Below, one piece after another: positions 10,560 to 43,971 of a stretch of DNA of 45,798 nucleotides. The notes under the pieces are model-generated. The model worked only from the letters and a program-made list of their open reading frames with translations, was not told the origin of the DNA and ran no database searches. Position 1 is the stretch's first letter; every line of letters starts with the position of its first letter. The stretch comes from Candidatus Parcubacteria bacterium (GTDB lineage: Bacteria > Patescibacteriota > Minisyncoccia > JACPXH01), in the NCBI GenBank assembly GCA_016196625.1, contig JACPXH010000003.1:1-45798 (forward strand), read 5' to 3'. A program made the translations under genes and the position numbers.

Positions 10560-10732
10560 GACCTTCAGACTTTAGACAACGTTCTTGTATCTCGCTAGAA
10601 CGTATTGTCTACCCCGTTAGAAAATCGCCAGTCGGCGGTTTTCAGCGGGGCAGGTTAACGAGGAAAGCTTGCGTCGAGTAAGCGGCAGCTCCGGCGCAAA
10701 TTTTCTAAACGGGGTCTACCTGTCTGAAGGTC
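10560..10732. repeat. Nested inverted repeats in the pnp 5' region
   Basis: Outer stem GACCTTCAGAC (10560-10570)/GTCTGAAGGTC (10722-10732). Inner element ACCCCGTTAGAAAAT (10611-10625)...ATTTTCTAAACGGGGT (10700-10715), with GGGGCAGG at 10647-10654. Confidence 0.75.
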
Positions 10733-10789
10733 AGATCCAGAGTTTAAATTAGTTGTAATTCACACGACGACAGACGACTTTTTATTTCG

Positions 10790-11386
10790 TTAGTGATGGA
10801 AGCGAATTTGCTTTTCAGCTGTGTCTGATTCGCGGGTAGTGCGGGGTAGTCGCTGGCGGCGGACTTGCATCTCGAGGCGTTTTGAGCGGATGAGGAAGCG
10901 GCTTGGATCTTGAGACAAATCAATGAAGTCATCCGCTGTTTCTTTGAGTCGGCCCGAGGACGATTCGCCAAAGGCCAGCACCTCAACTTGCTTGCCTTGG
11001 TTTTTTAGGTATTCGACCACCGGCACGAAGTCTCCATCGCCCGACACGAGCACGACTACGTCGAGCGTTGGCGCAAGACGCACGGCATCCACTGTAATCC
11101 CCACGTCCCAGTCGGCTTTTTTCGCGCCGCCGTAGAACACCTGCAGATCTTTGATTTTGGTTTCAATGCCGAGGCGCGTCAAGGCGTCAAAGAAAGTTTT
11201 TTCTTCTTCTACATCTGATTTGACCACGTACGCAATGGCCCGAATAAGCTTTCTGTCAGCCACCCCAGCCTTGACGACCTCATCAAAGTTCACCCGGGCC
11301 TTAAAAAGATTTTTGGCCGAGTGATACATGTTTTGAACGTCAATGAGCACGCCCACCCGTTGTTCCTTGTGTCGAACGATTGGCAT
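10790..11386 (-). CDS. NYN domain (LabA/DUF88, PIN-like) protein
   Basis: VLIDVQNMY, KADWDVGITVD, LVSGDGDFVP, GKQVEV, ADDFIDL. Confidence 0.92.
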   Translation of the reverse strand: MPIVRHKEQRVGVLIDVQNMYHSAKNLFKARVNFDEVVKAGVADRKLIRAIAYVVKSDVEEEKTFFDALTRLGIETKIKDLQVFYGGAKKADWDVGITVDAVRLAPTLDVVVLVSGDGDFVPVVEYLKNQGKQVEVLAFGESSSGRLKETADDFIDLSQDPSRFLIRSKRLEMQVRRQRLPRTTRESDTAEKQIRFHH

Positions 11387-11411
11387 GGCTGCGATTCCGC
11401 GTGAAACCGGA

Positions 11412-11684
11412 TCAGGCTTTGGCCTTGAGCCCGATTTTGCGCACGATTGATTGGTAGCGCTTTTTGTCTTCGGCCAGGAGGTAGTCGAGGAGCCGTTTGC
11501 GCTTAGCCACCATTTTTAAGAGTCCCCGGCGCGAGTGGTTGTCTTTCGTATGTTTTAAGAGGTGCTGGCGGAGCTGTTCGATCTCTTCGGTAAAGAGTGC
11601 GATTTGAACTTCCGACGAGCCGGTGTCTTGGTCGTGGAGTTTGTATTTTTTTATAACCTTTTCTTTCTCTTGCGGTTGCAGCAT
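11412..11684 (-). CDS. rpsO: 30S ribosomal protein S15
   Basis: [13 protein letters not shown]...[29 protein letters not shown]. Confidence 0.98.
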
Positions 11685-11794
11685 GATAGTAATGCAAGTC
11701 TAGCACGCTCCGTGTTAATGAGCAAGGATTTTTTGGAAAGGAGTAGCGCCCAGCCGTACTTGTGCGGCTGGGCGCTAGGGCTCGCGTCTCGCAG

Positions 11795-12325
11795 CTATGA
11801 AAGGTGCACGAGCGCGAGGCAGTTGTAGCCGTGATGGAACAGATGAGACGGCGCTTCTCCTTTTGCGGCGAGGTCAAATATCCCCTCTGTGCCTTCACAG
11901 TCGCTGAAGCTATGCGGCCGGTTCAAAGTCAACAACCCGTTCAGGTATGAGAGCGTCTCGTCCTCAACACGGAAGCTCTTCGGGCCGCGGCCGCCCACGA
12001 AGATGCGATTCTCGTAGGCGTACCGGAGCGCTCGCCTGAGAAAGGGGATTGCGCGCTTGTCTTTGCACCAACCCCGATACTGCATGCCCCAGACCGGGCC
12101 GGACCGCAGCTCTTCGTGCCAGATACCGGTTTGGCCGAAGCTCTTCTCGCCAACCGAGAAGTAACAATCCACATACAGGAACGGCGGCTTCTTGTATCGG
12201 AGGACCCGTGAGCCGGGTAGCTCAACAATGGTCCTCTTGGCCATGACTATGTCGTCCGCGCAGATTTCCATCCCCGCCTCGAAAAAGAAGTCGAGCACCT
12301 CTTTTTCGGCGAGTTCGATTCCCAT
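11795..12325 (-). CDS. Hypothetical protein, DUF5680-like
   Basis: Pattern LYVDCYF...SFGQTGIW...PVWGMQYRG...FLRRAL...GRGP...GTEGI resembles DUF5680. A hairpin follows at 11743-11778. Confidence 0.6.
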   Translation of the reverse strand: MGIELAEKEVLDFFFEAGMEICADDIVMAKRTIVELPGSRVLRYKKPPFLYVDCYFSVGEKSFGQTGIWHEELRSGPVWGMQYRGWCKDKRAIPFLRRALRYAYENRIFVGGRGPKSFRVEDETLSYLNGLLTLNRPHSFSDCEGTEGIFDLAAKGEAPSHLFHHGYNCLALVHLS

Positions 12326-12371
12326 CGCTGCGCAGTATTTTATTTGTACACTCCTTATTTTACTTCGTCAA

Positions 12372-13689
12372 GTGCAGAATACTTAAAATAGTTCGAACGC
12401 ATTTCGCCGCCTTCGGCGGCGAGGAAAGCCCCCCGCGAAAATTCGGAAAGGCGGCGGAGCCGCACCGCTGACAATTTCAAGTTTTTCTAATGAGTTGATT
12501 TTAACTCATTGCAGTAAATTTTTCAATCAAAGATTATTGAAAAATTTACTGGTTTGGCGGCAAATTCTTTGAAAAAATAAAAAGAGAAAGGCACCGTCAA
12601 CTGAATGAACGGTGCCTGTGATGGACAACACTTGGTGGGGCGGTTGTCCGTTAACCCCTACTGCGCCTACCACTCCGGCCCGCGAGTGCCCCATGATCTC
12701 GGGATGTCCGTCGCGGTGATGCCATACTGGCTACGCCGCGGCTTCTTCCAGAGCATGAGACGACCCGAGTAGCGGAAGCAGAGCGTCAGTAGCTTGATCC
12801 GGTCGTTCTTCACGAACCGGGCCAGAGCCACTTCCACGTCTGCCTGCTTCCACGAGGCCACCGTCAGTTTCTCGTCCTCGCGGACGGGAAACGGATACGG
12901 AAGCTCCTCGTGCGCCGTGCCGTAGGCGTAGTACTCGCCGTCGCCTGGGTCGAGACGGAGCGTGATGTCGCCGAAGTTGATCTTCGGACGATACACCACA
13001 CTTTGCCGGTTCGACCAGATCCCGAAGAGGAAGAAGAGAATCGTTTCCCTCCACCTCGACTCTGGGAACTCCTGCGACGGGAGACCGCTCACCTGGATAT
13101 CGTTGGAGATGATCCCGGCGAGACGCTGTACGAGCTGGTTCATGGCGAACCTCCTTGGGGAGGTGCTCCGCAATACCACACTACTGGACAATCCAGCAGG
13201 TGAATTGTGGAGGCAGCCGCATTTCTGCAGCAACAAGCGAGAAACTAAGGAATAATTTCCCATTTGTTGCCGCAGAAGCCAAAAATCAATGTACTTAATT
13301 TACTGCAATGAGTATAGCATATATGAACCAGTATGTCAAGCCAAGGGCAGAACAATCAAAAAAGCCCTTATTTTAGGCTATTTTCTCTGCTTGCTATCAA
13401 CAGACTTTTTGGGAACATCCCAAACTTTTGAATAAGTGCCAGGAGGTGATGGAAAGGCGCGGCAAGCAAAAAGAAATCAGAAAACACTATTTCGCTTTTC
13501 TTGGCCTTATGAAATGTGGCTCATGTGATTGTTCTATCACCGCCGAAAAGCAAAAAGGGCACAACTATTATCGCTGTACCAAAAAGAAAGAGAACTGCCA
13601 AGAAAAGCATTACCTCCGAGAAGAAAGTTTGGTTGGTGGCCGAGCGGCGCGTTCCGCGCCGCGAGGCATTGACTTTTCCTGATTGGTGC
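12372..13689 (+). mobile_element. Degenerate large-serine-recombinase (LSR) island integrated at the 3' end of tRNA-Lys
   Basis: GTGC core at both junctions (12372-12375 and 13686-13689). Joining the ends restores an in-frame recombinase-like C-terminus FPDWC|RILKIVRTHF. Intergenic DNA is low-GC. Confidence 0.65.
12667..13143 (-). CDS. Hypothetical cargo protein (158 aa from ATG 13143)
   Basis: Strong SD (AAGGAGG) upstream of ATG 13143, high GC3, and a terminator hairpin at 12589-12616 with a T-run on the minus strand. Confidence 0.7.
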   Translation of the reverse strand: MNQLVQRLAGIISNDIQVSGLPSQEFPESRWRETILFFLFGIWSNRQSVVYRPKINFGDITLRLDPGDGEYYAYGTAHEELPYPFPVREDEKLTVASWKQADVEVALARFVKNDRIKLLTLCFRYSGRLMLWKKPRRSQYGITATDIPRSWGTRGPEW

Positions 13690-13698
13690 CCCCACTAG
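13410..13698 (+). pseudogene. Remnant of a large serine recombinase (Zn-ribbon region plus frameshifted C-terminus)
   Basis: FNKCQEVM...FLGLMKCGSCDCSITAEKQKGHNYYRCTKKKENC is a recombinase zinc beta-ribbon. Another frame gives ..LTFPDWCPH* reading into the tRNA. The catalytic domain is absent. Confidence 0.8.
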
Positions 13699-13758
13699 GA
13701 ATCGAACCTAGATACACGGATTAAGAGTCCGCTGCTTTACCGATTAAGCTATGGGGGC
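13684..13758 (-). tRNA. tRNA-Lys(CTT), CCA encoded
   Basis: GCCCCCATAGCTTAATCGGTAAAGCAGCGGACT-CTT-AATCCGTGTATCTAGGTTCGATTCCTAGTGGGGGCACCA folds as a cloverleaf. Confidence 0.95.
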
Positions 13759-13764
13759 TTGGGC

Positions 13765-14490
13765 TTATAAGTTAACAGGCCTGACGGTATTTCTCAAAGA
13801 CTGCCACCTTCGTTCGGTTAGCGTAACTTCTGGGTCCAAGTTTTTTAGCGCTGCCTGTAACCACCCAAATATTCGATAATGGAGATTAACGCTCTTCGGC
13901 ACTTCAATCCGTGCTGTTCCGTAATAGAGATTGTTCTTTTTGAAGCCTTTGCTTCTCGGTTTTACAAAGGTTTTCCCGAAGTTGCTAATCGGAATATCGG
14001 TGAGATCTGACCAAAACTTCTTTATGTTGGCCTCGTTTTGTTGCGGATAGATATTCAAGCGCATTTTGAGGTTCGCCGGGAGAATCGAGAACATTGAGGT
14101 AATCCAACGAACCATGAATAGGATGAGGCGCGGGTCTGAATTGGTTATCTCAAGCATTTTCCCCTTGCTGCCCTCGGCCCAGTAGAGCGACGTACCCATG
14201 AGGCGTAATGCCTCGTGCGATACAGGAAGGCAAACCTCCTTTTTTGCTGCTGTGATTATCGCGTCGACCTCTCTTTGTCGGCGGGCTTTTTGGCTTTGAG
14301 GCCCCCGCGAAAGTATGGCGATTTGCTTGGTATAAAGCCTTTCCTTGTGTTCTGGCTTAAGTGGCAATCCCTTCAGCCAAGAACTCAAGGCGCTTTTTGA
14401 TACCGCTACTTCCTTCCGTATTTCTCCGTAGCTCCACCCTTGTTTTCGTAACGAAATCGCTTTTTGTCTGGCGACAGTGTAATTTTCCAT
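13765..14490 (-). CDS. HTH plus LAGLIDADG-like domain protein between two tRNA genes (putative)
   Basis: N-terminal HTH (LRKQGWSYGEIRKEVAVSKSALSSWL), then GTSLYWAEGSK...ITNSDP. AT-richer than its neighbours. Confidence 0.7.
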   Translation of the reverse strand: MENYTVARQKAISLRKQGWSYGEIRKEVAVSKSALSSWLKGLPLKPEHKERLYTKQIAILSRGPQSQKARRQREVDAIITAAKKEVCLPVSHEALRLMGTSLYWAEGSKGKMLEITNSDPRLILFMVRWITSMFSILPANLKMRLNIYPQQNEANIKKFWSDLTDIPISNFGKTFVKPRSKGFKKNNLYYGTARIEVPKSVNLHYRIFGWLQAALKNLDPEVTLTERRWQSLRNTVRPVNL

Positions 14491-14568
14491 GTACCACCAT
14501 CGTACCACACAGGAAAGATGAACTCAACACTGTATTTTTACAGGCGAACGGGTGGTCGATTTGGTCTG

Positions 14569-14640
14569 TGTCCCCGAGAGGACTCGAACCCCTAATAACT
14601 GCTCCGAAGGCAGTTGTGATATCCATTTCACTACGGGGAC
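14569..14640 (-). tRNA. tRNA-Arg(TCG), no encoded CCA
   Basis: GTCCCCGTAGTGAAATGGATATCACAACTGCCT-TCG-GAGCAGTTATTAGGGGTTCGAGTCCTCTCGGGGACA. Confidence 0.93.
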
Positions 14641-14717
14641 GGACAACGACCAATTATAGGCGTTAGTGCATTGAGCGGTCAATTGAAGCATGGCAGTGCC
14701 TGCGGTAGAATTGCGAC

Positions 14718-16208
14718 ATGCCCAGCCAGAAAACTCCGAAAGAAGTTGCCGCCTTGATTGAGCAGCTCACCACTGCTGGTTTTGAAGCTGTTGTGGTGGG
14801 TGGGTGCGTGAGGGATCTTTTGCTCAACGCGAAACCGGCGGATTGGGATGTAGCCACAGATGCGATTCCCGAAGAGATCCAGCGGGTTTTCCCGGAGAGC
14901 GTATATGAAAATCAGTTCGGCACCGTGGGCGTGAAAACCGGCAGCGATGATCCATCGCTCGCGATTGTAGAAGTAACCACGTATCGGGTGGACGAATCAT
15001 ACTCTGACCAGCGTCACCCGGATCGGGTGCGGTTCACCAAGAGTCTTGAGGAAGATTTGGCGCGGCGGGATTTTACGATCAATGCCATCGCACTGAAAAT
15101 CAAAAATCCAGATCAAAACTCCAAAATAGCGGAAGACTACGAAATTGTTGATCCGTTTGGCGGGCAGGCCGACCTTGAGGCGAGGCTTATCCGCGCGGTG
15201 GGGGAGCCGACCACACGTTTCCGGGAAGATGCGCTGCGGCTCATGCGGGCGGTGCGGCTGGCCACACAGCTCGGGTTCACGATTGAGCCGGAAACCACCG
15301 CGGCTATCAAGGCGAATGCGCGGTTACTCAAAGCCATCGCCGCAGAGCGCATCCGCGACGAACTCACGAAATTGGTCATGGCAGATAAGCCCGCTCTTGG
15401 TTTCACGTTGCTCAAGGATTTGGAGTTGCTGGAATACGTCTTGCCTGAACTTGCCGAGGGGGTTGGCGTGGGCCAGAATAAGCACCACATCTATCCGGTG
15501 TTTGAACATTCAATCAATTCGCTTGAGTACGCAGCCCACGCCAAGTACTCGCTCAACGTTCGGCTCGCCGCGCTCTTGCACGATGTCGGCAAACCAAAAA
15601 CCAAGCGGGGCGAAGGGCCGGATTCCACGTTTTACGGCCACGAGATGGTGGGGGCAAAGATGACGCGTCAAGCTCTTCGCCGCCTCAAATTCTCCAAGGA
15701 TATCGAGGAGCAGGTAACGCATCTCGTGCGCTACCACCTCTTCTATTACAATGTGGACGAGGTAACCGAAGCCGGGGTCCGGCGGCTCGTGCGCAAGGTT
15801 GGGCCGGAGCACATGGCTGATCTCATCAAGTTGCGCACCGCAGACCGGAAGGGATCGGGTGTGCCCAAAGCCATGCCGTATAAACTTCGGCATTTGCAGT
15901 TTTTGATCGAGAAGGTTTCGCGCGATCCCTTGACCGTCGGAATGCTCAACATCAGGGGCGATGACATCATGCGGATTTTGAAGATTGACCCCGGGCCAAA
16001 GGTCGGTCTAATATTGAAAGCCCTCATGGACGAAGTGCTTGATGATCCGGGGAAAAACACCACAGAATATCTTGAGGCGCGCATTGCCGAGCTCGGTGCG
16101 CTATCAGAGCCAGAGCTCCGAAAATTTGCCCAAGCCGGGGAGGGGAAGGTGGAGGAGTTCGAGGCCGGGGCAGTCGCCGAAATAAAAAAGAAGCACTGGG
16201 TGCAGTAA
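14718..16208 (+). CDS. cca: CCA tRNA nucleotidyltransferase (class II) with HD domain
   Basis: VGGCVRDLL, DWDVAT, EVTTYR, EDLARRDFTINA, FREDALRLMRAVR, ALLHDVGK. Confidence 0.93.
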   Translation: MPSQKTPKEVAALIEQLTTAGFEAVVVGGCVRDLLLNAKPADWDVATDAIPEEIQRVFPESVYENQFGTVGVKTGSDDPSLAIVEVTTYRVDESYSDQRHPDRVRFTKSLEEDLARRDFTINAIALKIKNPDQNSKIAEDYEIVDPFGGQADLEARLIRAVGEPTTRFREDALRLMRAVRLATQLGFTIEPETTAAIKANARLLKAIAAERIRDELTKLVMADKPALGFTLLKDLELLEYVLPELAEGVGVGQNKHHIYPVFEHSINSLEYAAHAKYSLNVRLAALLHDVGKPKTKRGEGPDSTFYGHEMVGAKMTRQALRRLKFSKDIEEQVTHLVRYHLFYYNVDEVTEAGVRRLVRKVGPEHMADLIKLRTADRKGSGVPKAMPYKLRHLQFLIEKVSRDPLTVGMLNIRGDDIMRILKIDPGPKVGLILKALMDEVLDDPGKNTTEYLEARIAELGALSEPELRKFAQAGEGKVEEFEAGAVAEIKKKHWVQ

Positions 16209-16262
16209 ATTGTAAGAAATCATCGCGTTGTTTACACAAACAGACATGATACGATCTGACAC

Positions 16263-16394
16263 CAAGCCGGGCAGGCTCTCGCTACGCGAAAATCCCCAGC
16301 GAGGATTTTCGCTGCTCTTCGGCCTCGCTCCTCCGCCTGCTGGCGGAGACCCTGCCCGCTCGGCCTCAGAAGCCACTCGAGCCTACCCGGCTTG
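16263..16394. repeat. Stem-closed palindromic element, related to the nusA leader element
   Basis: Terminal IR CAAGCCGGGCAGGCTC/GAGCCTACCCGGCTTG (15/16 match). Internal CCTGCCCGCTCGGCCT (16351-16366) is identical to 29737-29752. Confidence 0.7.
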
Positions 16395-16462
16395 ATGCAA
16401 ACAACGCTAGCCTTTCTTACAAGTAGTGATGCCCACGTGAGTCGAAGCGGGGCGAGCGAAGG

Positions 16463-16646
16463 CGGGCTGTAGTGGACCGGTACCACGCTTGGCCCGCCCC
16501 GCACCAATTCGCCGGGGATTAGTGTAGCGGCAACATGCATGGTTCGGGACCATGATACGGTGGGTTCGACTCCCACATCCCCGAATGAAGAATTTGGTGC
16601 GGGGTGAAGGACCAAGAGGCAGAGGGTTCAATTCCCTCCAGCCCGA
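16463..16646 (+). pseudogene. Interrupted tRNA-Pro-like gene; 5' half 16463-16492, 3' half ~16605-16646; anticodon loop holds a ~112-nt insert
   Basis: Acceptor CGGGCTG/CAGCCCG + A73, D-stem GTGG/CCAC, anticodon stem CTTGG/CCAAG, T-arm GAGGG-TTCAATT-CCCTC, all fully paired. C1-G72/A73 are Pro identity elements. Confidence 0.85.
16513..16584 (+). tRNA. tRNA-Pro(CGG), nested inside the interrupted tRNA above
   Basis: CGGGGATTAGTGTAGCGGCAACATGCATGGTT-CGG-GACCATGATACGGTGGGTTCGACTCCCACATCCCCGA is a complete cloverleaf. Confidence 0.93.
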
Positions 16647-16756
16647 CTGAACAAAGTGAAGGAGGGTGGAGCACGCAAACTGCTTTGCGTGCGGAGGGCG
16701 GAGCCGCCGACGTTCCCCTGGGCTGGGCTTCCGGCCCGACATATATCGAACGTTGC

Positions 16757-16827
16757 GGGCCTATAGCACAGCGGTAGTGCGCCGCATTCGCATTGCGGAG
16801 ACGGGAGTTCGATCCTCCCTAGGTCCA
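16757..16827 (+). tRNA. tRNA-Ala(CGC)
   Basis: GGGCCTATAGCACAGCGGTAGTGCGCCGCATT-CGC-ATTGCGGAGACGGGAGTTCGATCCTCCCTAGGTCCA, with the G3:U70 pair. Confidence 0.93.
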
Positions 16828-16881
16828 CATTTCAAGATTTCAAGACTTCGCAGTGCATGTTTTTGTGGCAACCATAGTCGC

Positions 16882-16910
16882 TTGACATTTTCTTGATATC
16901 ATAATACTGT
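16882..16910 (+). promoter_or_regulatory. sigma70-type promoter for the SDR gene
   Basis: TTGACA-17 nt-TACTGT. Confidence 0.55.
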
Positions 16911-17031
16911 TTGCGTCGGAGTTTAACTTGGTAATTCCGCGTAGTCTTGCTGCGCGGTCATGCCGCGCGGAGGGTCATCTGACCCATCAGGCGGCCGTGG
17001 ACATGGACTTGTATCGAAGGAGGGCGGGAGC

Positions 17032-17778
17032 ATGGGTTCTTTCGATGGGAAGCACGTTCTGGTAACAGGCGGGGCGAGCGGGATCGGGCTTGCGTGCGCA
17101 AGGGAATTTTCAGGTCAGGGAGGGCGGGTTGGCGTCCTCAATAAGCAGCATCCTAGGTCTGAAGTGTTCGCAGAAATACCTAAAGACTTCAGCACTTTTC
17201 TGACGGTGGATGTTTCACAGCGGCTTGAAGTCGACCGAGCGTTCCGCCACCCGGCATTTCACGCAGGCGTTGATGTACTCGTCAACAACGCGGGCATTGA
17301 GGAGCAGTTCTCTCTTGCGGATCCAGACTACGATGTTTGGACGCGCGTCCACGAGGCTAACGTGAGGGGCGCGCTCTACGTGACCGAGTTCGCTCTCAAG
17401 GTGATGAGTTCTGGGGGCGCGATTGTCTTTATCACGTCGGTCCATACGATTCAGGCGTGGAGGGGTAATGCCGCGTACGATGCCTCCAAGCACGCGCTCT
17501 TGGGGGTCATGCGGTCGCTGGCGCTCGATCTGGCGCCGGCCGGCATTCGGGTCAATGCGGTGGCCCCCGGCATGATCTACCCGACTGGTATTACGAGTCG
17601 GCTATCGCCAGCGCAGGCTGATGCTCTTGGTCAAAAGGTGCCAGTGGGGCGCTACGGTCGGCCCGAGGAGGTGGCCAAGGTCGTCGCGTTCCTTGCTTCG
17701 GACGAGGCAAGCTACATTACGGGCCAGCAGATCGTGGTGGACGGGGGATTGACCATCACGAACGTCCTAGGTACTTGA
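17032..17778 (+). CDS. SDR family NAD(P)-dependent oxidoreductase
   Basis: [14 protein letters not shown], catalytic [37 protein letters not shown] upstream of ATG 17032. Confidence 0.93.
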
Positions 17779-17820
17779 TCCAGTGTGCGCCGCGGCCCTT
17801 GGCCGCGGCGCACCTTCATT

Positions 17821-17979
17821 ATTTACCCAACGCACCACAAGGCCATCGTCTCCTGCTCGCCTCGCTTCGCGGGCGAAGCGGGCCGGTGGATGAATGGTTG
17901 GTGCGTAGGCCTTCGGTGCGGGGTTCCGTTCCGCCACCGAAACACGAGGTGCCGCCGACTCCCGTCGGCGGGGCTCCAC
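17821..17979 (-). repeat. 159-bp palindromic repeat element, an inverted copy of the element inside tig
   Basis: Reverse complement aligns closely to 34624-34791; the tig copy has an extra ATCCACCGG duplication. Confidence 0.9.
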
Positions 17980-18018
17980 CGTGGCCCCATCTTGTTTTAG
18001 TTTTAGTCTATCAGTATA

Positions 18019-18795
18019 ATGGCTCTCGCACGTTCAATGGCGACCAAAAATCTCTCTGAAACCGAACTAAAAATTCCGAACCACGTAGCCATCATTCCTG
18101 ATGGCAATCGCCGCTGGGCAAAAGAACGCGGGTTGCCCGGGTGGATTGGGCATCGCTATGGCGCGCGGGCCTTCTTGGCGAACGTCCGCGAGGCGCTCAA
18201 GCTCCGAGTGCCGAATGTGTCGTTCTGGGCATCTTCTAAAGACAACATCACAAAGCGCGAGGCAACCGAGGTGAGGCATCTACTCGCGATTTATAAGCGT
18301 GAGTTCGCACGCCTCGCGAAATCCCACGAAATCCACGACAACAAAGTCCGGGTGAATATCCTTGGCGAGTGGCGGCGGCTGTTCCCGGACGAGGTGTGCC
18401 GGGTTTTTGACAAGGCTATTGCGGCCACGAAAGAGTACGCTCGCCACAACCTTAATTTTTTTATGGCCTATGACGGTCAGACCGAGATGTTGCGCGCGGT
18501 CGAGAGTATCGTCGCGCAAGCATCCGGAGTAGCTGGCCGTGGCGCAAAGACGGGGACGGCTGTTGCCGTAACGCCGGCGTTGCTCAAAACGAATCTCTAC
18601 ACGCGCGAGCTCCCGCCGGTGGATCTGGTGATTCGCACGGGTGGCGAGTCGCATTGGTCAGCTGGGTTCATGATGTGGGATTGCGCGAACGCGCAACTCT
18701 ACTTTACCGATAAACTCTACCCGGACTTTGGGGCCAAAGAGTTCCACGCGGCGATCGAGGATTACTCCCGCCGCGAACGACGGTTTGGAGCATAG
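18019..18795 (+). CDS. uppS: Undecaprenyl diphosphate synthase (start possibly 18037)
   Basis: IPNHVAIIPDGNRRWA, GHRYG, DLVIRTGGE, LYFTDKLYPDF, RERRFGA. Confidence 0.95.
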   Translation: MALARSMATKNLSETELKIPNHVAIIPDGNRRWAKERGLPGWIGHRYGARAFLANVREALKLRVPNVSFWASSKDNITKREATEVRHLLAIYKREFARLAKSHEIHDNKVRVNILGEWRRLFPDEVCRVFDKAIAATKEYARHNLNFFMAYDGQTEMLRAVESIVAQASGVAGRGAKTGTAVAVTPALLKTNLYTRELPPVDLVIRTGGESHWSAGFMMWDCANAQLYFTDKLYPDFGAKEFHAAIEDYSRRERRFGA

Positions 18796-18913
18796 GCATA
18801 AACTGTTGGGGCGGGCGCCGGTGCCTCCGAGGCGACATCCGCAGTCGAGCGGCATGGTCCGTGCACTCATCGTAGTGAGTGCACGGCACCCACCCACCCA
18901 CAAAATTACCCCC

Positions 18914-19300
18914 ATGCCCCAAACCCAGAAGCAGTTTATCGGCCGCCACGGCGAAGAGGCCGCCGCGGCTTTTTTGCGCCGCCTCGGTTATCGCATCATT
19001 GAGACAAACTGGCGACCTAGGCGGGGCAGGGGAGAGCTTGACCTCATCGCTTCGCATCGCGGGGCGCTGGTGTTTGTCGAGGTAAAGACGCGCCACGCCG
19101 CAGTCACGCCTTTTCCGGCCGAGGCGAACATCACGCCGACAAAAATCCGCCATCTCCAGCAGCTCGCCGCCCGGTACCTCTTGGAGCATCCCGTTTGGCA
19201 GTCAGGCCCCGCACAGATTGACGTCATCGCGGTTGAGTTTACAGAAGGGCGCGCGCCAGTTATCCGGCATTGGCCGCGCGCAGTCGGAGCGCCGCGGTAG
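18914..19300 (+). CDS. yraN: YraN family (UPF0102) endonuclease-like protein
   Basis: GRHGEEAAAAFL..GYRIIETNWR..GELDLI..LVFVEVKTR..QIDVIAV. Confidence 0.92.
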   Translation: MPQTQKQFIGRHGEEAAAAFLRRLGYRIIETNWRPRRGRGELDLIASHRGALVFVEVKTRHAAVTPFPAEANITPTKIRHLQQLAARYLLEHPVWQSGPAQIDVIAVEFTEGRAPVIRHWPRAVGAPR

Positions 19301-19385
19301 GGCCTGTGTATTACCGCGGTGTGCTCATGTGGTATAATAGGATGGTTGTGACTGCGACGATTTTGCTTTTGGTCGTCACCCTCCA

Positions 19386-22300
19386 ATGAAATTTTTCCAA
19401 CGTCTGCGCGCGCGCCCTTTCTCCGAGCGGGGCTTTACCGCGCGAGAACGCCGCCAAGTCCTCGCGGCAACAAGAAATAAAGACGTTGCGGGCGTCGCAC
19501 TGCCGCTCGCAGCGAAATCGCCAGCGCCCGCTCGGGCGGGGTTTACAATCGTGGAGGTGCTCATTACGATCGGGCTCCTTATTTTGGTCATGTTCGGGAT
19601 TTACGGCGCCTACAGCCTCATGATCCGGCTGACCGGCCAAAGCCGGGCGCAGACCGTGGGGCTGCAGCTGGCTCAGGAAAAAATTGAATTTATCCGTAAC
19701 CTGCCCTACCAGAGCGTGGGCGTGGTCGGCGCCGTCCCAGCCGGGGTCGTGCCGGCAAGCGAGAGCATGTCACGCAGCAGCGTCCAGTTTACCGTCAATA
19801 CCACTATTCGGAACATTGACGACCCCTTTGACGGAGATGCGGCCGGGTCCATTCCGGGCAAGCCCGTGGATACCGACCCGGTTGATTATAAACGCGTGGA
19901 GGTTCAGATAACATGCGCAGCGTGTCCGAGCGGTTCACCCATTGTGCTTACGACCAATGTGGTGCCCAGAGGCGTGGAGGCTGGTGCGAGTACGGGATCG
20001 CTCCTTGTGAGGGTCATCAACAAATCCGGTCAGCCCGTCGCGCAGGCCGCCGTGGGCATCAAGAACGCCGGCGTCTCGCCCACCGTTGATTTCACCGACA
20101 CGACCGATGTGAACGGCAAGCTCATGGTCGTGGGCATGCCGGCTGCTTCGGGCTACCGCCTGACGATTGCCAAGCCCGGCTACTCGAGCGACGGCACGCT
20201 CCCGCCGGGAGATCCCAAGAATCCCAACCCGGTTAAGCCCGACCCCACGATTGTGGCCGGTCAGATAACGGAGCTCACGTTCTCTATTGATCGGGTGAGC
20301 ACCCTGGTCGTTAAAACCGCCAATCAGGCGTGCGAGAGTATCGGCTACGTGAGCGCGCATGTCCAAGGGCAGACGCTCATCGGCACCAATCCCGACGTGC
20401 CCAAGACCTCATTTGAGCTGGCGACAGACTCTTACGTGGGCGGCGTTGCGACCCCCCCCGCTAACCCAACCGTGGCGGGATCAGTCAACGACTCGACAAA
20501 TTTGTCCAACCCCATTTCCGTCTTCGTTTCCGGCCCGTATGCCTATGTGGCGGCATACTCCGGCAACCGCCTGACTGTGGTTAACGTCTCCAATCCTGCG
20601 AGTCCAACGGTAACCGGTTCGGTCATGGACGCAACAAGGCTAGGGGGATCTTCCTCCGTCTTCGTCTCCGGCCAGTATGCCTATGTGACCGCAGACTTCG
20701 GCAACCGCCTGACCGTGGTTAACGTCTCCAATCCTGCGAGTCCAACGGTAACCGGTTCGGTCAAAGACAATACCAATCTAAGCAGACCCATGTCCGTCTT
20801 CGTCTCCGGCCAGTATGCCTATGTGGCAGCACACGAAGGCAGCCGCCTCACTGTGGTTGACGTGCTCAACCCTGCGAGCCCGACCGTGGTTGGCTCGGCC
20901 TACGACGCGACAAATTTGGACGGTCCCTACTCCGTCTTCGTCTCCGGCCAGTATGCCTATGTGGCACTAGACTATAGCAACCGTCTGACCGTGGTTGATA
21001 TCTCTAACCCTTTAAGCCCAACGGTAGTAGGTTCAGTGAGTGACGCAACAAATTTGGACAATTCCGCCTCCGTCTTCGTCTCCGGCCAGTATGCCTATGT
21101 GGCGGCAACCATTGGCAACCGCCTCACCGTGGTTGACGTCTCCAACCCCTCCAGTCCCACCGTGGTGGGTTCAATCAACGACGCGACCAACCTGTACGGA
21201 GCTCGCTCCGTCCGCGTCTCCGGCCGGTACGCCTATGTGGCAGTAAGCGCTGGCAACCGTCTCACCGTGGTTGACGTCTCCAACCCCTCCAGCCCAACCG
21301 TGGTGGGTTCAATCAACGACGCGACCAACCTGAACTACCCCGTTTCCGTCTTCGTCTCCGGCCGCTACGCCTATGTGGCGGCATTCGACGGCAGCCGCCT
21401 CACCGTGGTTGACCTCGGGCAGTGGGTTGACACGTCGCCCATCTCGCCCGCCGTCGTCGGCAGCGTTAACGACGCGACCAATCTGAATTTCCCTGCCTCC
21501 GTCTTCGTCTCTGGCCGGTACGCCTATGTGGCAGCGGCCACTGGCAACCGCCTCACTGTAGTTGATATCTCTAATCCCTCAAGTCCAACTGTGATGGGTT
21601 CGGTCAGAGACGCGACCAATCTGAACAACCCTATCTCCGTCTTCGTCTCTGGCCGGTACGCCTATGTGGCAGCATTCAGCGGTAACCGCCTCACCGTGGT
21701 TGACGTCTCTAATCTCTCAAGTCCCACAGTGACAGGTTCAGTCAACGATGACACAAATTTGAATGGCGCCTATTCAGTCTTCGTCTCCGGCCGCTATGCC
21801 TATGTAGTGGCACAAACCGGCAACCGCTTGACCGTGGTTGACGTCTCCAACCCCTCAAGTCCCACAGTGGTGGGTTCAGTCAATGATGCCGTAAATCTGA
21901 ACACCTCTTACTCCGTCTTCGTCTCCGGCCGGTACGCGTATGTAGCAGCATTCTCCGGCAACCGCCTCACTGTAGTTGATATCTCTAATCCCTCAAGTCC
22001 AACTGTGGTGGGTTCGGTCAATGACGCGACCAATCTGAACGGCGCTATCTCTGTCTTCGTCTCTGGCCGGTACGCCTATGTGGCAGCATTCTTCGGCAAA
22101 CGCCTCACGGTGGTTGATATCTCCAATCCCTCAAGTCCAACTGTGGTTGGCTCGGTCAGAGACACGACCAATCTGAGCGGCGCCCGCTCCGTCTTCGTCT
22201 CCGGCCGGTATGCGTATGTGGCGGCATACTCCGGCAACCGCCTCGCTGTAGTTGATATCTCCAATCCCTCAAGTCCAACTGTGGTGAGTTCAGTCAATGA

Positions 22301-25499: not shown

Positions 25500-25500
25500 C

Positions 25501-29972: not shown

Positions 29973-31424
29973 ATGTTTCACGACCACAAACAATTTATTG
30001 CTGCCCTGGAGCAGATTGCCGATGAGAAGGGTATCAGTCGCGAGCGGGTGCTCGCGACAATTGAGCTTGCCATTGCCGCAGCCTACAAGAAGGACTATGG
30101 CAAAAAGGGCCAAGTTATCCGCGCGAAGCTCGACCCAGCCACCGGGACCATCTTAGTCAAGCAGGTTAAACTGGTGGTGGATGAAGCCATGCTTAAACCC
30201 GCCGAGGAAATCGAGGCCGAGGACGAGATGCGTTCAGAGACGTTGAGCGAGGAGTTCTTGTCTGAAGCGGCTCGGGCCCGGCGCGCAGCGCAAGAATCCG
30301 AAGACGAGACATTGGGCGAGGTGGGCGAGAAGAAAATTCGATTCAACGCCGAAAAGCACATTATGGTCGCTGACGCCAAGGTTCTCGACCCCGCGCTTGA
30401 AGCGGGGACGGAGCTGGAAATTCCATTGGAACCCCACGAGTCTTTCGGCCGCATCGCCGCGCAAACGGCAAAGCAAGTCATCATTCAGCGGATCCGCGAA
30501 GCCGAGCGGGAAGCGGTTTATAGTGAATACAAGGACAAGGAGGGCGAAGTGGTCTCCGGTGTCGTCCAGCGCGTCGACGGCCGGAACGTGTTCCTCGATA
30601 TCGGTAAAGCGGTCGGGATTCTGCCGGCGTCCGAGCAAATCCCATCCGAACGCTACCACGTGGGTGAGCGTCTCAAGGTGTATGTGTTGGCAGTGGAGAA
30701 GGAGACGCGGGGGGCGGGACTGGTGCTATCGCGGGCCCACCCGAAGTTGATTGAAAAACTTTTTGAGATGGAGGTGCCGGAGGTAGCCTCGGGCGCGGTA
30801 GAAATCAAAGCGACCGCGCGGGAAGCTGGGGCGCGATCCAAGATCGCCGTCGCTTCACACGAAGAGGGCGTTGATCCGGTTGGTTCGTGCGTGGGCCAGA
30901 AAGGCACTCGAGTTTCCACCGTCATCAACGAGCTCTCCGGTGAGAAGATCGACATCATCCAGTGGTCGGCTGATTCGGATCAGTTCATAGCCCAGGCGCT
31001 CTCGCCCGCAAAAGTAAGCGAGGTGGTTGTTGACGAGGTCGAACATCGCGCCACGGTTGTTGTGCCCGAAGAGCAGTTGTCTTTGGCCATCGGTAAGCGC
31101 GGCCAAAACGTGCGCCTGGCCGCAAAGCTCACCGGTTGGAAAATTGACATCCGTGGGACCGGCGGCACCGTGCCGCCGGTCGAAAGCGCCGCAGCGCCTG
31201 GCGAAGGCTCTGCGCTGCCGCCTGCTGACGGCGACGCTTCAACTGCCGAAGAAGCAGGCGGTACGCTGCCACCTGCTGATAGCGCCGCGGCGCCAGTCGC
31301 CGAAGGCGACTCTCCGCCACCTGCCGCAAACGCCGAAGAAGTCGAAGCTTCTCCAGAGGTTGACGAGCCCAAAGCCCAACCAGCCGGCCCGGCCGAGCCA
31401 GAGCCAACGTCTACTGCTCAATGA
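29973..31424 (+). CDS. nusA: Transcription termination/antitermination factor NusA with an acidic insert and an Ala/Pro-rich tail
   Basis: [23 protein letters not shown]1 domain, [47 protein letters not shown]. Confidence 0.97.
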
Positions 31425-33435: not shown

Positions 33436-34871
33436 AGACAGCCGTCGTCAAACACACCGGATCACGGGTTGCGCTTACGGTTGAGCTCACCCCGGAAGAG
33501 TTTGAACCGTACTGGGAGCGAGCGGTCTCGGTCCTCGGGCGTGAAGTCCACGAGCCCGGGTTTCGGCCGGGCAAGGCGCCGAGCCAGATCGTGGTGGGCA
33601 CCATAGGCGAGGGCGCGGTCCTTGATCGTGCGGCCCGCTTGGCGGTGGGGAAAACCTATGCCCGCGCGCTCGAAGAGCAGGACTTGGAAACCGTGGGCGA
33701 GCCCAGAATAGAGGTTCTCAAGGTGGCGCGGGCGAACCCCTTTATTTATCGGGCGATGTTTGCGGTTCCGCCCGAGATTATCCTGCCCGATTGGCGAAGA
33801 ATCGCCCGAGGCATTCCCTTGGAGGCGGCTGCGGTCACCGAACAAGAACTGTCTTCAGCCTTGCGGTATCTGTGCGAGGCTAGGGCTGTGTTTACAGCCG
33901 TCAGTCGGCCGGCCGCGCGTGGCGATCGGGTCCATGTTGATTTTGTTCTTCGTATCGAGGGGAAGACGGTGGCAGGCGGGGAAAGCAAAAATCACCCTTT
34001 CATCTTGGGCGAGGGTCGGTTTCTTGCGGGCTTTGAAGATCAGATCATCGGCATGCAGGTGGGTGAGGAGAAGTCGTTTTTTCTCTCGGTGCCCCCGGAT
34101 TTTCCCCAACGTACGATCGCTGGCCAGACCTTGGATGTATCGGTTGCGCTGCGGCAATTGGAAGAGCGATCCGTGCCGGAGTTGAACGATGAGTTCGCCC
34201 GTTCGGTGGGGAGGTTTGCGGATGCGGCAGCTCTCTTCGGCAACGTGGCTGAGGGGTTACGTCTTGAGAAGACTGAAGCGGCCAAGGTTGCTCGGCGCAG
34301 TGCCGCGATTGAAGCCATAGCCGAGCGTGCCCGCCCTGAAGTGCCGGCCGCACTCATCGAAGCCGAGCTTGACCGGATGATCCATGAGTTTGGGCATTCA
34401 CTCGAGACCTACGGGCGTGATCTATCTCTGTACTTGGTCGAAGTAGGTAAAACCGAAGCCGAGCTGCGCGCTGATTGGCGCACCCGCGCCGAGCGCCGGA
34501 CCAAGGCCGAGCTTATTATCCGCGCCATAGCCAAGGCCGAACTCATCGCGCCCGGGCCCGGCGAAGTTGAGGCGCGCATGCAGCAGGTGCTCCAGTAGTT
34601 CCATGCGGTTAAAGCAGCAAACAGTGGAGCCCCGCCGACGGGAGTCGGCGGCACCTCTCATTTCGGTGGCGGGGCAGAACCCCGCACCGAAGGTCTACGC
34701 ACCAACCATCCATCCACCGGATCCACCGGCCCGCTTCGCCCGCGAAGCGAGGCGAGCAGGAGACGATGGCCTTCTGGTGCGTTGGGTAAATTTGACCCCG
34801 CGCAACTCGAGGCGTATACTCGGGGCGTGCTGAGGGCGGAAAAAGTACTTGAACTGCTGGATTCAGCATAA
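33432..34871 (+). CDS. tig: Trigger factor; ORF stops at TAG 34596-34598 but the frame stays open to TAA 34869-34871
   Basis: PGFRPGKAP ribosome-binding motif and FKBP domain (GFEDQIIGM). A C-terminal helix-like segment [22 protein letters not shown] lies downstream of the TAG and an in-frame insert. Confidence 0.88.
34624..34791 (+). repeat. 168-bp palindromic element inserted in frame in the 3' part of tig
   Basis: 56 codons with no stops in the tig frame; second copy at 17821-17979. Confidence 0.9.
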
Positions 34872-34914: not shown

Positions 34915-35023
34915 AATGTCAAAATCCAAATTTCAAATCAAACTCAAAGCTTAAAATCCAAAACGCGTTTTGACATTAGAGTTTTGGATTTCATTTGATA
35001 TTTGAGCTTTGGCATTTGACATT
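34915..35023. repeat. AT-rich imperfect long hairpin of short AAATCCA/TGGATTT-like units immediately before clpP
   Basis: AATGTCAAA...TTTGACATT termini, with an A-rich 5' arm and a T-rich 3' arm. Confidence 0.7.
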
Positions 35024-41827: not shown

Positions 41828-41829
41828 GC

Positions 41830-43800
41830 ATGCCTCGTCGTTGGCGAAGGCAGAATCGAGCGTCTCGCTGGGGGTGGCCGGCGTCCACAGTGGCCGCCGT
41901 GGTGTTGGCCATAGGCGCTTTGGCGTTTCTTGATGTTTTTCAGTCAGTTGAAGCTCGGCTCTCGGACCGATTGTTTCTGTCGCGCGCTCCGCGATCCGAC
42001 ATTGTCATCGTGGCCATTGATGATGCAAGTTTGCAGGCGGTGGGACGCTGGCCCTGGCCGCGCCGGGTGCACGCCGAGCTTATCGGCATCCTCAAACCCG
42101 TTGAGCCGGCGGTAGTTGCTTTCGATGTCGCCTTTTTTGAATCCTCGAGCGCCGCTGACGATGAAGCTTTGGCCAAAGCCATAGCGTCTGTCCCGACCGT
42201 GCTCACAGTTGAAGCGCAAGATTTTACCGCACGGCAGAGGCCTTGGCAGGGGAGTGGCTTGCTTCAACCGATTCTGGTGTTGCGCCAAGCCGCCCGGGCT
42301 CTGGGGCACGCGCACACGCCGGCTCAAGGCGACGGAGTGGTGCGCGTTTTTCCGGACGAGTTGGTTACGCCCGAGGGTGAGTTCCCCCCGTTCGCCTTGG
42401 CGGCAATTGCGAGCCGTGGCGGTAGACGGGATTTCAAGTCGGACCGGATTAATTTCGTTGGTCCTCCGGGCACAATAAAAACCGTCTCGTACGCCGATGT
42501 GCTGGCGGGGCATATCCCGGCCGAACAGTTTCGCGATGCGTTTGTGTTCGTGGGCGCCACCGCCCCGAGTCTGCATGATACGGTTTTGACTCCTAGTTCG
42601 CGGGGGAATGGGCTTGCCGGTGTGGAGCTGCACGCGCAGATTGCCGAGCAGGTGCTTCGAGGTCTGCCCTTGCGGGTGGCTCCGAAACAGGCGACCGTCG
42701 GCGTCGTCGTGGCGCTCGGGCTCCTGATTGCTTTCACCTTTCCTCGCGGCCGGCGTTTGCGCCACGCCGCGCTCGTAGCCCTTGTCTTTGGTTTGGCCTA
42801 TAACGGGCTCGTACTCCTGGCCTTCAGCCGGGGGTTGATCCTTAACATTTTCTGGCCCAACGTGACGATCATGGCCGTGGTGGTGGCGATGGTGGGGGTT
42901 GAGTACCTTGCCGCCAGCCGCGAGCGCCGCTTCATCCGGGAGACATTCAGTCGGTACGTATCTCCTGAAGTCGTGGCGCATCTCCTTGAGCATCCCGAGC
43001 ACCTGCGGCTCGGCGGCGAGGTGCGCACGCTGACGATTCTCTTTTCTGACATCCGCAGCTTTACTTCTATTTCGGAGCGGCTTGCCGCCGGCGAACTCAC
43101 GCAGCTTTTAAACCGGTACCTGACCGCAATGTCGGCCGTTATCCTGCAGGAAGGCGGCGTGCTCGACAAATACATTGGCGACGCCATCATGGCTTTCTGG
43201 GGCGCGCCCATTCCCATGGCCGATCATGCTGCCCGAGCTGTCCGGGCAGCGCTCGGCATGCAGAAGGCACTCGAAGGCCTCAACGCCGAGTTGGCCCGCG
43301 AAGGCAAGCCCAAGATTGCGATCGGCATCGGCATCAACACGGGCGAAGTGGTGGTGGGGAACATGGGGTCTCAACAGCGTTTTGACTACACCGTGATCGG
43401 CGACGCGGTCAATCTTGCGTCGCGCCTTGAGGGTTTGAATAAGATCTACGGCACTATGATGCTAGTGTCGGCTGAGACCGAGCGCGAGTTGCCGCTGGAA
43501 GTTTTTAGGCGCGAAGTTGACCGGGTTGCGGTTAAGGGGAAGTCCGGAGCTGTTACTGTTTTTGAATTGATGAGTGGAGAGGAGTTTGAAAAAAATAAGC
43601 GAGCCCTCGCCGTTTTTGCAGAGGCGCTCGAGCACTATCGTGCCCAGCGCTGGGACGAAGCCGAGGCAGCGCTTGCGAACGTTCTCGCCCTCCGGCTAGG
43701 CGATGGGCCGAGCGAAGTTTTCCTTAAACGAATTAAAGTATTCCGGCACAACGCGCCCCTGCCCGGTTGGGACGGCAGCTGGCAGGCGGAAACAAAGTAA
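41830..43800 (+). CDS. CHASE2-domain class III adenylate cyclase
   Basis: CHASE2 motifs IVAIDDASL..GRWPWPR and GVELHAQ, three TM helices, FSDIRSFT, DKYIGDAIMAFWGAP (Lys), DYTVIGDAVNLASRLE (Asp; ATP-specifying pair). Confidence 0.93.
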   Translation: MPRRWRRQNRASRWGWPASTVAAVVLAIGALAFLDVFQSVEARLSDRLFLSRAPRSDIVIVAIDDASLQAVGRWPWPRRVHAELIGILKPVEPAVVAFDVAFFESSSAADDEALAKAIASVPTVLTVEAQDFTARQRPWQGSGLLQPILVLRQAARALGHAHTPAQGDGVVRVFPDELVTPEGEFPPFALAAIASRGGRRDFKSDRINFVGPPGTIKTVSYADVLAGHIPAEQFRDAFVFVGATAPSLHDTVLTPSSRGNGLAGVELHAQIAEQVLRGLPLRVAPKQATVGVVVALGLLIAFTFPRGRRLRHAALVALVFGLAYNGLVLLAFSRGLILNIFWPNVTIMAVVVAMVGVEYLAASRERRFIRETFSRYVSPEVVAHLLEHPEHLRLGGEVRTLTILFSDIRSFTSISERLAAGELTQLLNRYLTAMSAVILQEGGVLDKYIGDAIMAFWGAPIPMADHAARAVRAALGMQKALEGLNAELAREGKPKIAIGIGINTGEVVVGNMGSQQRFDYTVIGDAVNLASRLEGLNKIYGTMMLVSAETERELPLEVFRREVDRVAVKGKSGAVTVFELMSGEEFEKNKRALAVFAEALEHYRAQRWDEAEAALANVLALRLGDGPSEVFLKRIKVFRHNAPLPGWDGSWQAETK

Positions 43801-43829
43801 CAGTTCGCCTCGGCGAGCTGTTACTGTTC

Positions 43830-43971
43830 TGGAGCGAGTAGGGGGAACCCCGCACCGAGTTCCGAAACGGGGTTGACTCAACTCACGTTACTGCCTCGGT
43901 AACGCCTGCGGCTTTGCGTCATCTTCGCACCGCTTCTTCCCCGAGAATTGGTGCGGGGCAGGTCGAACCCC
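43830..43971 (-). pseudogene. 3' fragment of a tRNA-Gly-like gene (att remnant), with a 115-bp insert (43848-43962) in its T-loop
   Basis: Minus strand reads GGGGTTCGA|insert|TTCCCCCTACTCGCTCCA; the insert is CCTGCCCCGCACCAATTC...GAACTCGGTGCGGGG. Confidence 0.65.

Follow-up and report, generated by a model that had tools for sequence, protein, structure and literature searches.

The Correia elements of Neisseria and the Rickettsia palindromic elements are bacterial elements of the miniature inverted-repeat transposable element (MITE) type, found in genes and leaders. Repetitive extragenic palindromes (REP, or REPIN when paired, with their RAYT transposases) and insertion sequences of the IS200/IS605 group, such as IS608, are hairpin-ended and leave no target duplication, and integrative islands, which carry an integrase, target tRNA genes and restore the gene while duplicating only its 3' part. 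In archaea, tRNA introns move between tRNA genes in Thermoproteales (Fujishima et al., 2010, cited in PMC10714607), and in the tRNA-dependent lysogeny of actinobacteriophages the mobile element goes into an essential tRNA gene of the host and does not rebuild it (Guerrero-Bustamante and Hatfull, 2024, PMC10865867). Here we describe six insertions in contig JACPXH010000003.1 of a Candidatus Parcubacteria bacterium (assembly GCA_016196625.1, called G000 below; 818 kb in 25 contigs, 94% complete with 0.5% contamination). The window is the whole stretch of 45,798 nucleotides that was analysed and is contig C10 of our numbering. We favour, with a probability of roughly 0.68, the explanation that the six sites are insertions of three families of repeats that have no transposase, and that the tRNA cassettes among them represent gene replacement at the level of DNA.

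Each of the described systems resembles a part of what is found here. The Correia and Rickettsia palindromic elements are likewise short, non-coding and hairpin-forming, with terminal inverted repeats and a short duplication, and lie in leaders or in frame in genes, where they are often tolerated; the present elements differ from them in their CCCCG... ends, in a 4-bp duplication of the form TNNA, in that no parent insertion sequence was found, and in that one branch has complete tRNA genes as cargo and tRNA genes as hosts. The REP/REPIN and IS200/IS605 systems share with the cassettes the hairpin ends, a neighbouring tetranucleotide, the lack of a duplication and an enzyme that would be encoded elsewhere, whereas the main family here has 4-bp duplications and true terminal inverted repeats and shows no link to Y1 transposase genes in the loci examined. 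Integrative islands in tRNA anticodon or T loops use the same sublocations and supply a replacement sequence, but in the present case the nested sequence is a complete second gene, unaccompanied by a recombinase. The archaeal introns comprise inserts in the anticodon loop and at non-canonical places such as the T arm, with related inserts in several tRNA genes (PMC10714607); unlike them, the inserts in this genome come with no bulge-helix-bulge and no EndA, have alleles that differ in DNA and outer genes that change or are lost, and carry a tRNA as cargo. The nearest functional analogue would be tRNA-dependent lysogeny. There a whole phage with a tyrosine integrase uses an attP/attB core of ~10 bp (PMC10865867). 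In the present genome the element is a gene-less cassette of ~110 bp, bounded by inverted arms, which occupies a central position in the anticodon or T loop and leaves two halves of the outer gene. A literature search, judged mostly from listings, found no description of nested same-anticodon tRNA cassettes in Patescibacteria. New here are the link to a duplication-making family found across the class, three allele states at one locus, the insertion of cassettes without duplication, and the setting apart of two of the six sites (3 and 5 below).

Six insertions and how they sort

The original prediction placed six short inserts in the window, and all of them exist at the positions it gave or within 2-4 bases. 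They lie in the pnp leader (site 1), a tRNA-Pro gene (site 2), an intergenic region (site 3), a pilin-like gene (site 4), the trigger factor gene tig (site 5) and a tRNA fragment (site 6). They are, as had been proposed, short, derived from insertion and without a transposase, and some carry cargo. Their termini are also enriched over background: the 9-mer CCCCGCACC occurs seven times in the window against 1.13 expected, a number reached by none of 100 dinucleotide shuffles. The proposal of a single family has to be abandoned, as the sites sort into three. Sites 1 and 4 belong to family 1 and sites 2 and 6 to family 2, all four with terminal inverted repeats, while an unrelated repeat (family 3) that has no inverted ends accounts for sites 3 and 5, which are 88.9% identical to each other. 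Neither are the interiors completely different: the core of site 6 is common to other copies in G000 and in relatives. The elements are 56-190 bp long, non-coding and multi-copy, as MITEs are. Stems closed by the element ends, which had been supposed for all the elements, were recovered at sites 2, 4 and 6 (z of -4.2, -4.8 and -2.2, respectively), while site 1 is closed at its ends in the centroid structure only.

Throughout G000 there are 45 occurrences of CCCCGCACC, nine of them inside the ~160-bp repeat of family 3 and about a dozen as the first nine bases of the arm CCCCGCACCAAWT typical of family 2. Pairs of CCCC..GGGG that lie 40-450 bp apart, with at least 12 of 14 terminal bases complementary, number 35, against 4 for the GGGG..CCCC control and 3-9 in five mononucleotide shuffles; most of the 35 end in sequences of the CCCCGTTAGAA... 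or CCCCGTACYACAAC... types. Syntenic alleles were compared with a genome of the same genus (G001) and with metagenome contigs (run X4); the latter comparison covered window positions 10500-30499, i.e., sites 1-4, and its findings are those among the joints listed. Both sources contain alleles with and without inserts, as the original prediction had led us to look for. The survey of the class comprised 201 genomes, and tRNA nests were searched in the first 40 relatives.

Cassettes inside tRNA genes

Family 2 consists of cassettes of ~110 bp with arms CCCCGCACCAAWT that sit in tRNA loops without a duplication. The one at site 2 (16493-16608, plus strand) interrupts an outer tRNA-Pro(CGG) gene (16463-16646, plus strand) that is split into a 5' part (16463-16492) and a 3' part (16609-16646). 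The cassette begins with CCCG and the left arm and ends with the right arm and TGAA, so that the whole reads CTTGG/CCCG-CCCCGCACCAATTCGC-tRNA-Pro(CGG)-...GAATTTGGTGCGGGG-TGAA/GGACCAAG, the slashes marking its limits. Between the arms lies a complete tRNA-Pro(CGG) gene (16513-16584, plus strand; ARAGORN and Rfam, 57.9 bits) that is the only intact gene of this anticodon in the assembly and shares 83% identity with a tRNA that stands alone at the syntenic locus of G001. Excision in silico of the cassette turns the outer gene into a clean cloverleaf with the loop CCCGGGA. The same arrangement was found elsewhere in G000 for Asp(GTC), Pro(TGG) and Val(CAC), each inside its own kind, so that outer and cargo anticodons match in 4 of the 4 nests with a readable outer anticodon, and the cargo of each nest is the sole intact gene for its anticodon in G000. 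Genes for Ile(UAU) and Thr(CGU) sit inside more degraded shells.

At the locus of tRNA-Pro(CGG) three kinds of allele exist at the DNA level: empty, nested and cargo-only. The window holds the nested one. In run X4, three contigs join position 16492 to 16609 with TTCG between, which gives an empty outer gene with the loop TTCGGGA, one contig has the outer gene 23 nt after the upstream gene, and another one has the cargo-only arrangement. The latter is also that of G001, in which the CCA-adding-enzyme gene is followed by 5 nt, a cargo-type tRNA-Pro(CGG), another 5 nt and tRNA-Ala, and the outer halves are absent. Compared with the empty allele, which has TT, the outer gene in G000 has C32 and C33, i.e., it has lost U33. 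Two other loci prove that cassettes insert without duplication. For Pro(TGG), G001 has an intact outer-type gene with the loop TTTGGGA, to which the insert in G000 adds 105 nt and no duplication, and for Asp it has an intact outer-type gene with the loop CTGTCAC.

These outer genes have changed as well. A stem of the outer Pro(TGG) in G000 reads GCAGC instead of GCAGG. The 3' half of the outer Asp gene is 100% identical to the gene of G001, and its 5' half together with the spacer belongs to a different allele, with a compensated D stem (GCTT/AAGC vs GCTC/GAGC) and a C2·C71 mismatch. Both genomes have the Val nest, with 98% identity over ~190 nt against 75% for the flanking gene, and in G001 the outer Val gene has received a further insert of ~90 nt in its D-loop.

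Four additional bases are present at one end of the cassettes, either CCTG/CAGG or, at the other end, TGAA, and the flanks of the cassettes therefore amount to the host loop plus four bases, yet there is no duplication. The CCTG/CAGG head is found in the Asp, Pro(TGG) and Val cassettes, at site 6 and in two relatives (L130 and L133), and TGAA in four others. Among the relatives searched, two have the same nesting and a third shows an arm-tRNA junction. One of the nests is a Pro(GGG) gene inside a Pro(GGG) gene with the same arms, and in the other a degraded shell resembling tRNA-Pro surrounds a Pro(CGG) gene whose arms are of the family 1 type; cassettes with a tRNA as cargo thus use both arm types. 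Rebuilding the outer tRNAs by a single excision failed in four relatives because of further inserts. When the arm 11-mer was used to fetch loci from other genomes, the partner arm was present in 9 of the 28 and a tRNA was enclosed in 4 of these 9 (Pro, Asp, Met and Leu).

Site 6 (43848-43962, no strand assigned) is a cassette without a tRNA, with arms CCCCGCACC...GGTGCGGGG and CAGG. Its end at 43962 is nearly identical to that of site 2 at 16493, as had been noticed originally, and its interior is related to other copies of ~111 bp in G000 and three relatives, with a common core around CTCGGTA(T/A)CGCC. The host had been taken for the T-loop of a tRNA-Gly gene. A T-loop is indeed split (TTCGA/.../TT), but the host (43830-43975, minus strand) is only a 3' fragment, T-arm plus acceptor with CCA, that resembles tRNA-Gly(TCC). 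No 5' half was found for it, and brute-force excision gave no whole tRNA across the junction.

A few observations on other shells and cargos belong here. On contig C16 of G000 (11200-12000, minus strand) a cassette with tRNA-Ile(UAU), an anticodon that is rare in bacteria, lies in the T-loop of a degraded tRNA with the acceptor CGGTCCG/CGGACCG. This degraded tRNA is preceded by another CTTGG-CCCG-CCCCGTACC junction, giving several shells. The cargo tRNAs in this genome have no encoded CCA, and several outer genes in relatives do encode it.

Duplication-bearing elements and the ~160-bp repeat

The members of family 1 are 90-130 bp long and have the ends CCCCG...CGGGG. There are 48 such pairs in G000 with at least 11 of 14 matches, and identical 4-mers flank 12 of them (TCAA in five, TTTA, TTGA and TTCA in two each, TAAA in one), against 1 of 48 when the comparison is displaced by four bases. 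Sites 1 and 4 add the duplications TCTA and TTTA. The duplications differ between near-identical copies, and in a distant relative a family 1 element lies between positions 9 and 10 of a tRNA-Pro(GGG) with TATA duplicated, a clear instance of a genuine duplication. Taken together, the 12 duplications and that of the relative point to insertion at staggered cuts. What had been read as a target motif, TTTAC or TCTAC before CC, is the 4-bp target duplication plus the first base of the element. In 4 of the 14 duplication-bearing copies the duplicated 4-mer has GGGG just 5' of it, so that the target resembles the element's own end. The 11-mer end CCCCGTTAGAA was found in 111 of the 201 class genomes, in nearly equal numbers in the two orientations, and in G000 there are 12+12 copies in 818 kb, against 0 for the reversed motif.

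Site 1 (10609-10714, no strand assigned; ends CCCCGTTAGAAAAT... and ...ATTTTCTAAACGGGG) is in the 5' leader of pnp, the gene for polynucleotide phosphorylase (PNPase; 8364-10544, Pfam), between TCTA at 10605-10608 and TCTA at 10715-10718. Its left 43 bases are a mini hairpin, followed by CAGG. The element occupies the apex of a long hairpin of the leader (10560-10732, minus strand; arms 10560-10570 and 10722-10732) that folds with z of -5.0 (minus-strand fold of 10545-10745) and has its arms conserved in G001. The left part of the element is in G001 too, which makes the insertion older than the split between the two genomes.

Site 4 (27412-27540, no strand assigned; ends CCCCGACACCTTTAGAGCG... 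and ...CGCTCCAAAGGTGCGGGG) is an element of the family 1 type flanked by TTTA at 27408-27411 and 27541-27544, in the codons for the leader and cleavage site of a pilin-like gene (27375-28119, plus strand). G001 is empty at this place: exactly the block of 133 bp is absent. The original start at 27375 gives MKTRARTRERGFT, which is interrupted by the element, whose sequence contains a stop in this old frame. The element also contributes a new ATG (27469), from which the frame MWHSYTTKWETISARFAQRSKGAG/FTVVELMIA... is read, with the same G/FTVVELMIA junction. When the element and one TTTA are removed in silico, MKTRARTRERGFTVVELMIAMAVLF is restored, with an N terminus like that of prepilins; we take the label prepilin from this motif since there is no Pfam match. 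The ATG of the original start (27375-27378) overlaps the stop of an upstream open reading frame (ORF) of 625 aa (ATGA). A hot spot at the GFT codons of pilin genes was considered and rejected, the two other GGGG-TTTA insertion sites not being pilin genes. Elsewhere in G000 (contig C12:53527-56474) two inverted family 1 copies enclose 2.7 kb of genes that look ordinary, and TTGA lies on the outer side of each, a layout like that of a composite transposon that may be a coincidence.

Family 3 is unrelated to these elements. Its nine copies in G000, four long ones and five without 36 internal bases, are 88.9-100% identical to the query copy, with ends GTGGAGCCCC... and ...GTTGGGTAAA that are not inverted, no duplication and the CCCCGCACC 9-mer in the interior (fold z of -2.6). 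Sites 3 and 5 are long forms in opposite orientations. The former (17822-17979, minus strand) is intergenic, just after a terminator-like hairpin, and is absent from the syntenic place in G001. The latter (34624-34790, plus strand) lies within the coding sequence of trigger factor (33420-34871, plus strand; Pfam Trigger_N, FKBP_C and Trigger_C), as translation and the alignment with G001 both bear out; it is in frame and has no internal stop. A TAG (34596-34598) that corresponds to a CAA in G001 now terminates the protein eight codons upstream of the insert. Behind the insert, the 27 displaced codons that used to end the gene (34791-34871) are still in frame and match the C terminus in G001, and the Pfam match to Trigger_C ends at profile position 123 of 162.

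How the insertions may have arisen and what else could explain them

A way to account for these observations is as follows. The elements of family 1 would be inserted by an enzyme acting in trans with 4-bp staggered cuts at T-rich TNNA targets, and copies would survive where the host RNA or gene tolerates them, such as at the tip of the pnp hairpin or in the pilin leader, for which the element supplies an in-frame start. In family 2 the same kind of arms would surround a cargo of ~75-80 nt that is either a complete tRNA gene or the conserved non-tRNA core. Once a cassette has landed in an essential tRNA gene of which there is a single copy, or has recombined into it, the cassette would persist only if its cargo is the same isoacceptor; the cargo would then become the working gene, and the split outer gene would decay and eventually be deleted. 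The replacement would thus take place in the DNA and would not amount to an intron. Family 3 would be an unrelated structured repeat, one copy of which entered tig in frame. The layout of the inserts, the duplications, the allele states and the changes of the outer genes are direct observations; the class of the enzyme and the route by which a cassette reaches its cognate tRNA gene are inferred. If this explanation is true, it accounts for the split and fragmentary tRNA genes of such genomes that automatic annotation misses or miscalls, and the nested tRNAs ought to be called as one live gene plus pseudogene halves and not as genes containing introns. From the duplication-bearing relatives of the cassettes one sees how a regulatory hairpin, a signal peptide and a chaperone gene can accommodate elements of this kind.

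A bolder proposal, which we put forward tentatively and at somewhat less than even odds, is that the arms-plus-tRNA cassettes are a distinct class of selfish elements of ultra-small bacteria, i.e., a gene-less module of ~110 bp that disrupts the anticodon loop of an essential tRNA gene present in one copy, and that makes itself indispensable to the host by bringing the only functional substitute. The cognate gene would be found via the tRNA sequence, with the outer halves acting as portable homology arms after uptake of DNA, or by an enzyme that reads the hairpin loops, and repeated rounds would turn over tRNA genes throughout the class and leave shells of dead genes. Were this correct, there would be a testable route for the horizontal replacement of essential tRNA genes in minimal-genome bacteria, and a minimal 'break it and replace it' strategy would join the known retention modes of mobile DNA.

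Several observations weigh against the explanation that we favour. The first is the enzyme. The original prediction had found no cognate transposase in the window, and none was found in the rest of the genome. The profile searches covered PF01797, PF13701 and PF01609 in G000 and PF01797 in five relatives. In G000 they gave no IS1380-type match, a truncated IS200-like Y1 frame of 107 aa that starts at profile position 40 (contig C8:1599-1805), and a DDE_Tnp_1 gene of 477 aa on a 1.7-kb contig (C7:1-1744) that has its own ends (GGTAAGTACTT...), unrelated to the repeats. Copies enclosing an ORF with a transposase, which had been suggested as a thing to look for, or any other autonomous element with the same ends (exact or near-exact), were not found in G000 at spacings of 450-5000 bp. 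At long range the end pairs of G000 yielded two family 1 copies that merely flank ordinary-looking genes, and three other long inverted repeats enclose ORFs, as read by eye. In three copy-rich relatives, the exact 11-mer pairs among those listed are all 20-210 bp apart. A scan of viral contigs with the 14-mer CCCCGTTAGAAAAC gave 60 single matches and no inverted pairs, and one of genome contigs with the 15-mer CCTGCCCCGCACCAA gave matches in all phyla, as expected by chance in 596 Gb.

The tRNA genes themselves provide the other points of this kind. G000 has 38 intact ones, and no intact gene for Phe, Tyr, His, Asn, Trp, Thr(GGU), Ala(GGC) or Arg(UCU/CCU) in the assembly; these nine expected species may be interrupted or, as repeats break contigs, unassembled. 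After excision in silico the outer genes still fold as good cloverleaves, and the higher identity of the Val nest than of its flank also fits a constraint on the whole nested unit. An RtcB ligase is encoded in G000. The expression of the cargo and the silence of the outer genes are read from DNA and are thus probable at best. Finally, the cassettes, having no family 1 duplication, may move differently, families 1 and 2 being joined by the sequence of their arms.

Homologous recombination would need no dedicated enzyme. After one insertion per tRNA type, DNA taken up by the cell would recombine via the outer tRNA halves, and the conservation of these halves would make the outer gene match the cargo always. 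The chimeric outer Asp gene, with one half identical to the G001 gene and the other half and spacer different but internally compensated, is what this would produce, and the Val nest with its less similar flank, the same Asp junction architecture in a distant genome (L120) and the lack of duplications at the Pro(TGG) and Asp junctions are in line with it. However, the sharing of arms and of the 4-nt head among different tRNA types and a T-loop is left unexplained and requires a mobile unit. Moreover, the case comes from three loci and one relative, and tRNA conservation by itself inflates the identity. We find this explanation, taken as a whole, unlikely. An additional spread of cassettes via recombination of the tRNA halves is suggested by the Asp chimera and by the Val nest, which is nearly identical in the two genomes.

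Single-strand transposition, in which a Y1/HUH enzyme (of the IS200/IS605 or the RAYT/REPIN style) reads a hairpin and an adjacent tetranucleotide, was the mechanism originally envisaged, after IS608. For the duplication-bearing elements an IS608-like mechanism is contradicted by the true 4-bp duplications (12 of 48 pairs against 1 of 48 in the displaced control), which differ between near-identical copies, and by ends that are plain terminal inverted repeats. For the cassettes the balance is less one-sided, as the lack of duplication in the tRNA-hosted copies and the polarity of the four bases, a recurrent head (CCTG/CAGG or TGAA) adjoining the stem, leave room for a single-strand or site-specific route. 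Y1 genes of ~230 aa were found in 4 of the 5 copy-rich relatives tested, besides the truncated frame in G000. Against this, none of the 8 Y1 genes examined in relatives has a CCCCG-type motif within 1.5 kb, one relative (G040) has 16+16 motif copies and no Y1 match, the tetranucleotides at the left flank of the cassettes vary (TTCG, CTTG, GTGA, GGAA and CTCC), and CCTGCCCC is not enriched genome-wide (62 observed vs 54.5 in shuffles). Simple target rules like those of IS608, checked by hand on the junctions, did not fit. Overall we consider a single-strand origin of the insertions improbable.

Even less probable is an intron-like behaviour, in which the closing stem would fold the insert out of the precursor tRNA or mRNA, to be removed or tolerated at the RNA level, so that both tRNAs are made. 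The original prediction had assumed such folding, and the strong end-closing stems, the well-formed outer cloverleaves, the canonical 7-nt loops restored in Asp and Pro(TGG) by removal of CCTG plus the element, the RtcB ligase and the arms and spacers of the Val nest, 98% conserved beside a flanking gene at 75%, are all compatible with it. RtcB, for its part, is common in bacteria (10 of 14 controls). At the tRNA sites the outer genes are mutated, chimeric, hit again or deleted, which speaks against folding out: the outer Pro(CGG) would have C33, against TT in the empty allele, the cargo type is all that G001 retains at this locus, the outer Val of G001 carries a second insert, and the outer Asp has an acceptor mismatch. 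In addition, EndA was not found in the 94%-complete G000 (no match to PF01974, which was found in 4 of 4 archaea used as positive control). By inspection there is no bulge-helix-bulge, with 7 nt and 4 nt left unpaired where the anticodon stem gives way to the closing stem. A scan of the window at the Rfam gathering thresholds returned four tRNAs and no intron family, hence no group I or II core in the inserts, which are 106-167 bp long. In the pilin-like gene, reading through the insert meets a stop. That the palindromes serve the host as terminators, RNase III sites or uptake-type signals under selection, the insertions being local duplications, is scarcely credible, even if conservation of the 11-mer end extends to many families of the class, numerous copies are intergenic and the old copy in the pnp leader is kept in two genomes, given the presence/absence alleles with exact 4-bp duplications, the insertions inside coding sequence and tRNA genes, and a density of the 11-mer in G000 far below that of uptake signals.

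Surroundings of the sites

The organism's DNA is present in four DNA runs, all from one groundwater study, and G000 encodes a tmRNA and, by Pfam, bacterial PNPase, trigger factor and ClpP. The gene of the CCA-adding enzyme (14718-16208), with a PolyA_pol head, HD and tRNA_NucTran2_2 domains, immediately precedes the tRNA-Pro/tRNA-Ala locus. Between this gene and the outer tRNA-Pro there is a dispersed repeat of ~215 bp (16206-16421) that matches at least 7 other places in G001, with 78-93% identity, one of them beside the pnp gene of that genome. Downstream of the outer tRNA-Pro, at 16672-16691, is a small perfect hairpin with the core ACGCAAACTGCTTTGCGT, a second copy of which lies in the D-loop of a degraded outer tRNA (contig C16, ~11810-11840). 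A different perfect hairpin, GCAAAATTGC-GTCA-GCAATTTTGC, is found near site 6 at ~44010-44035. Three further stretches (29604-29944, 34915-35023 and 18809-18888) each match from 4 to more than 12 places in G001, so that the window contains more repeat families than those of the six sites.

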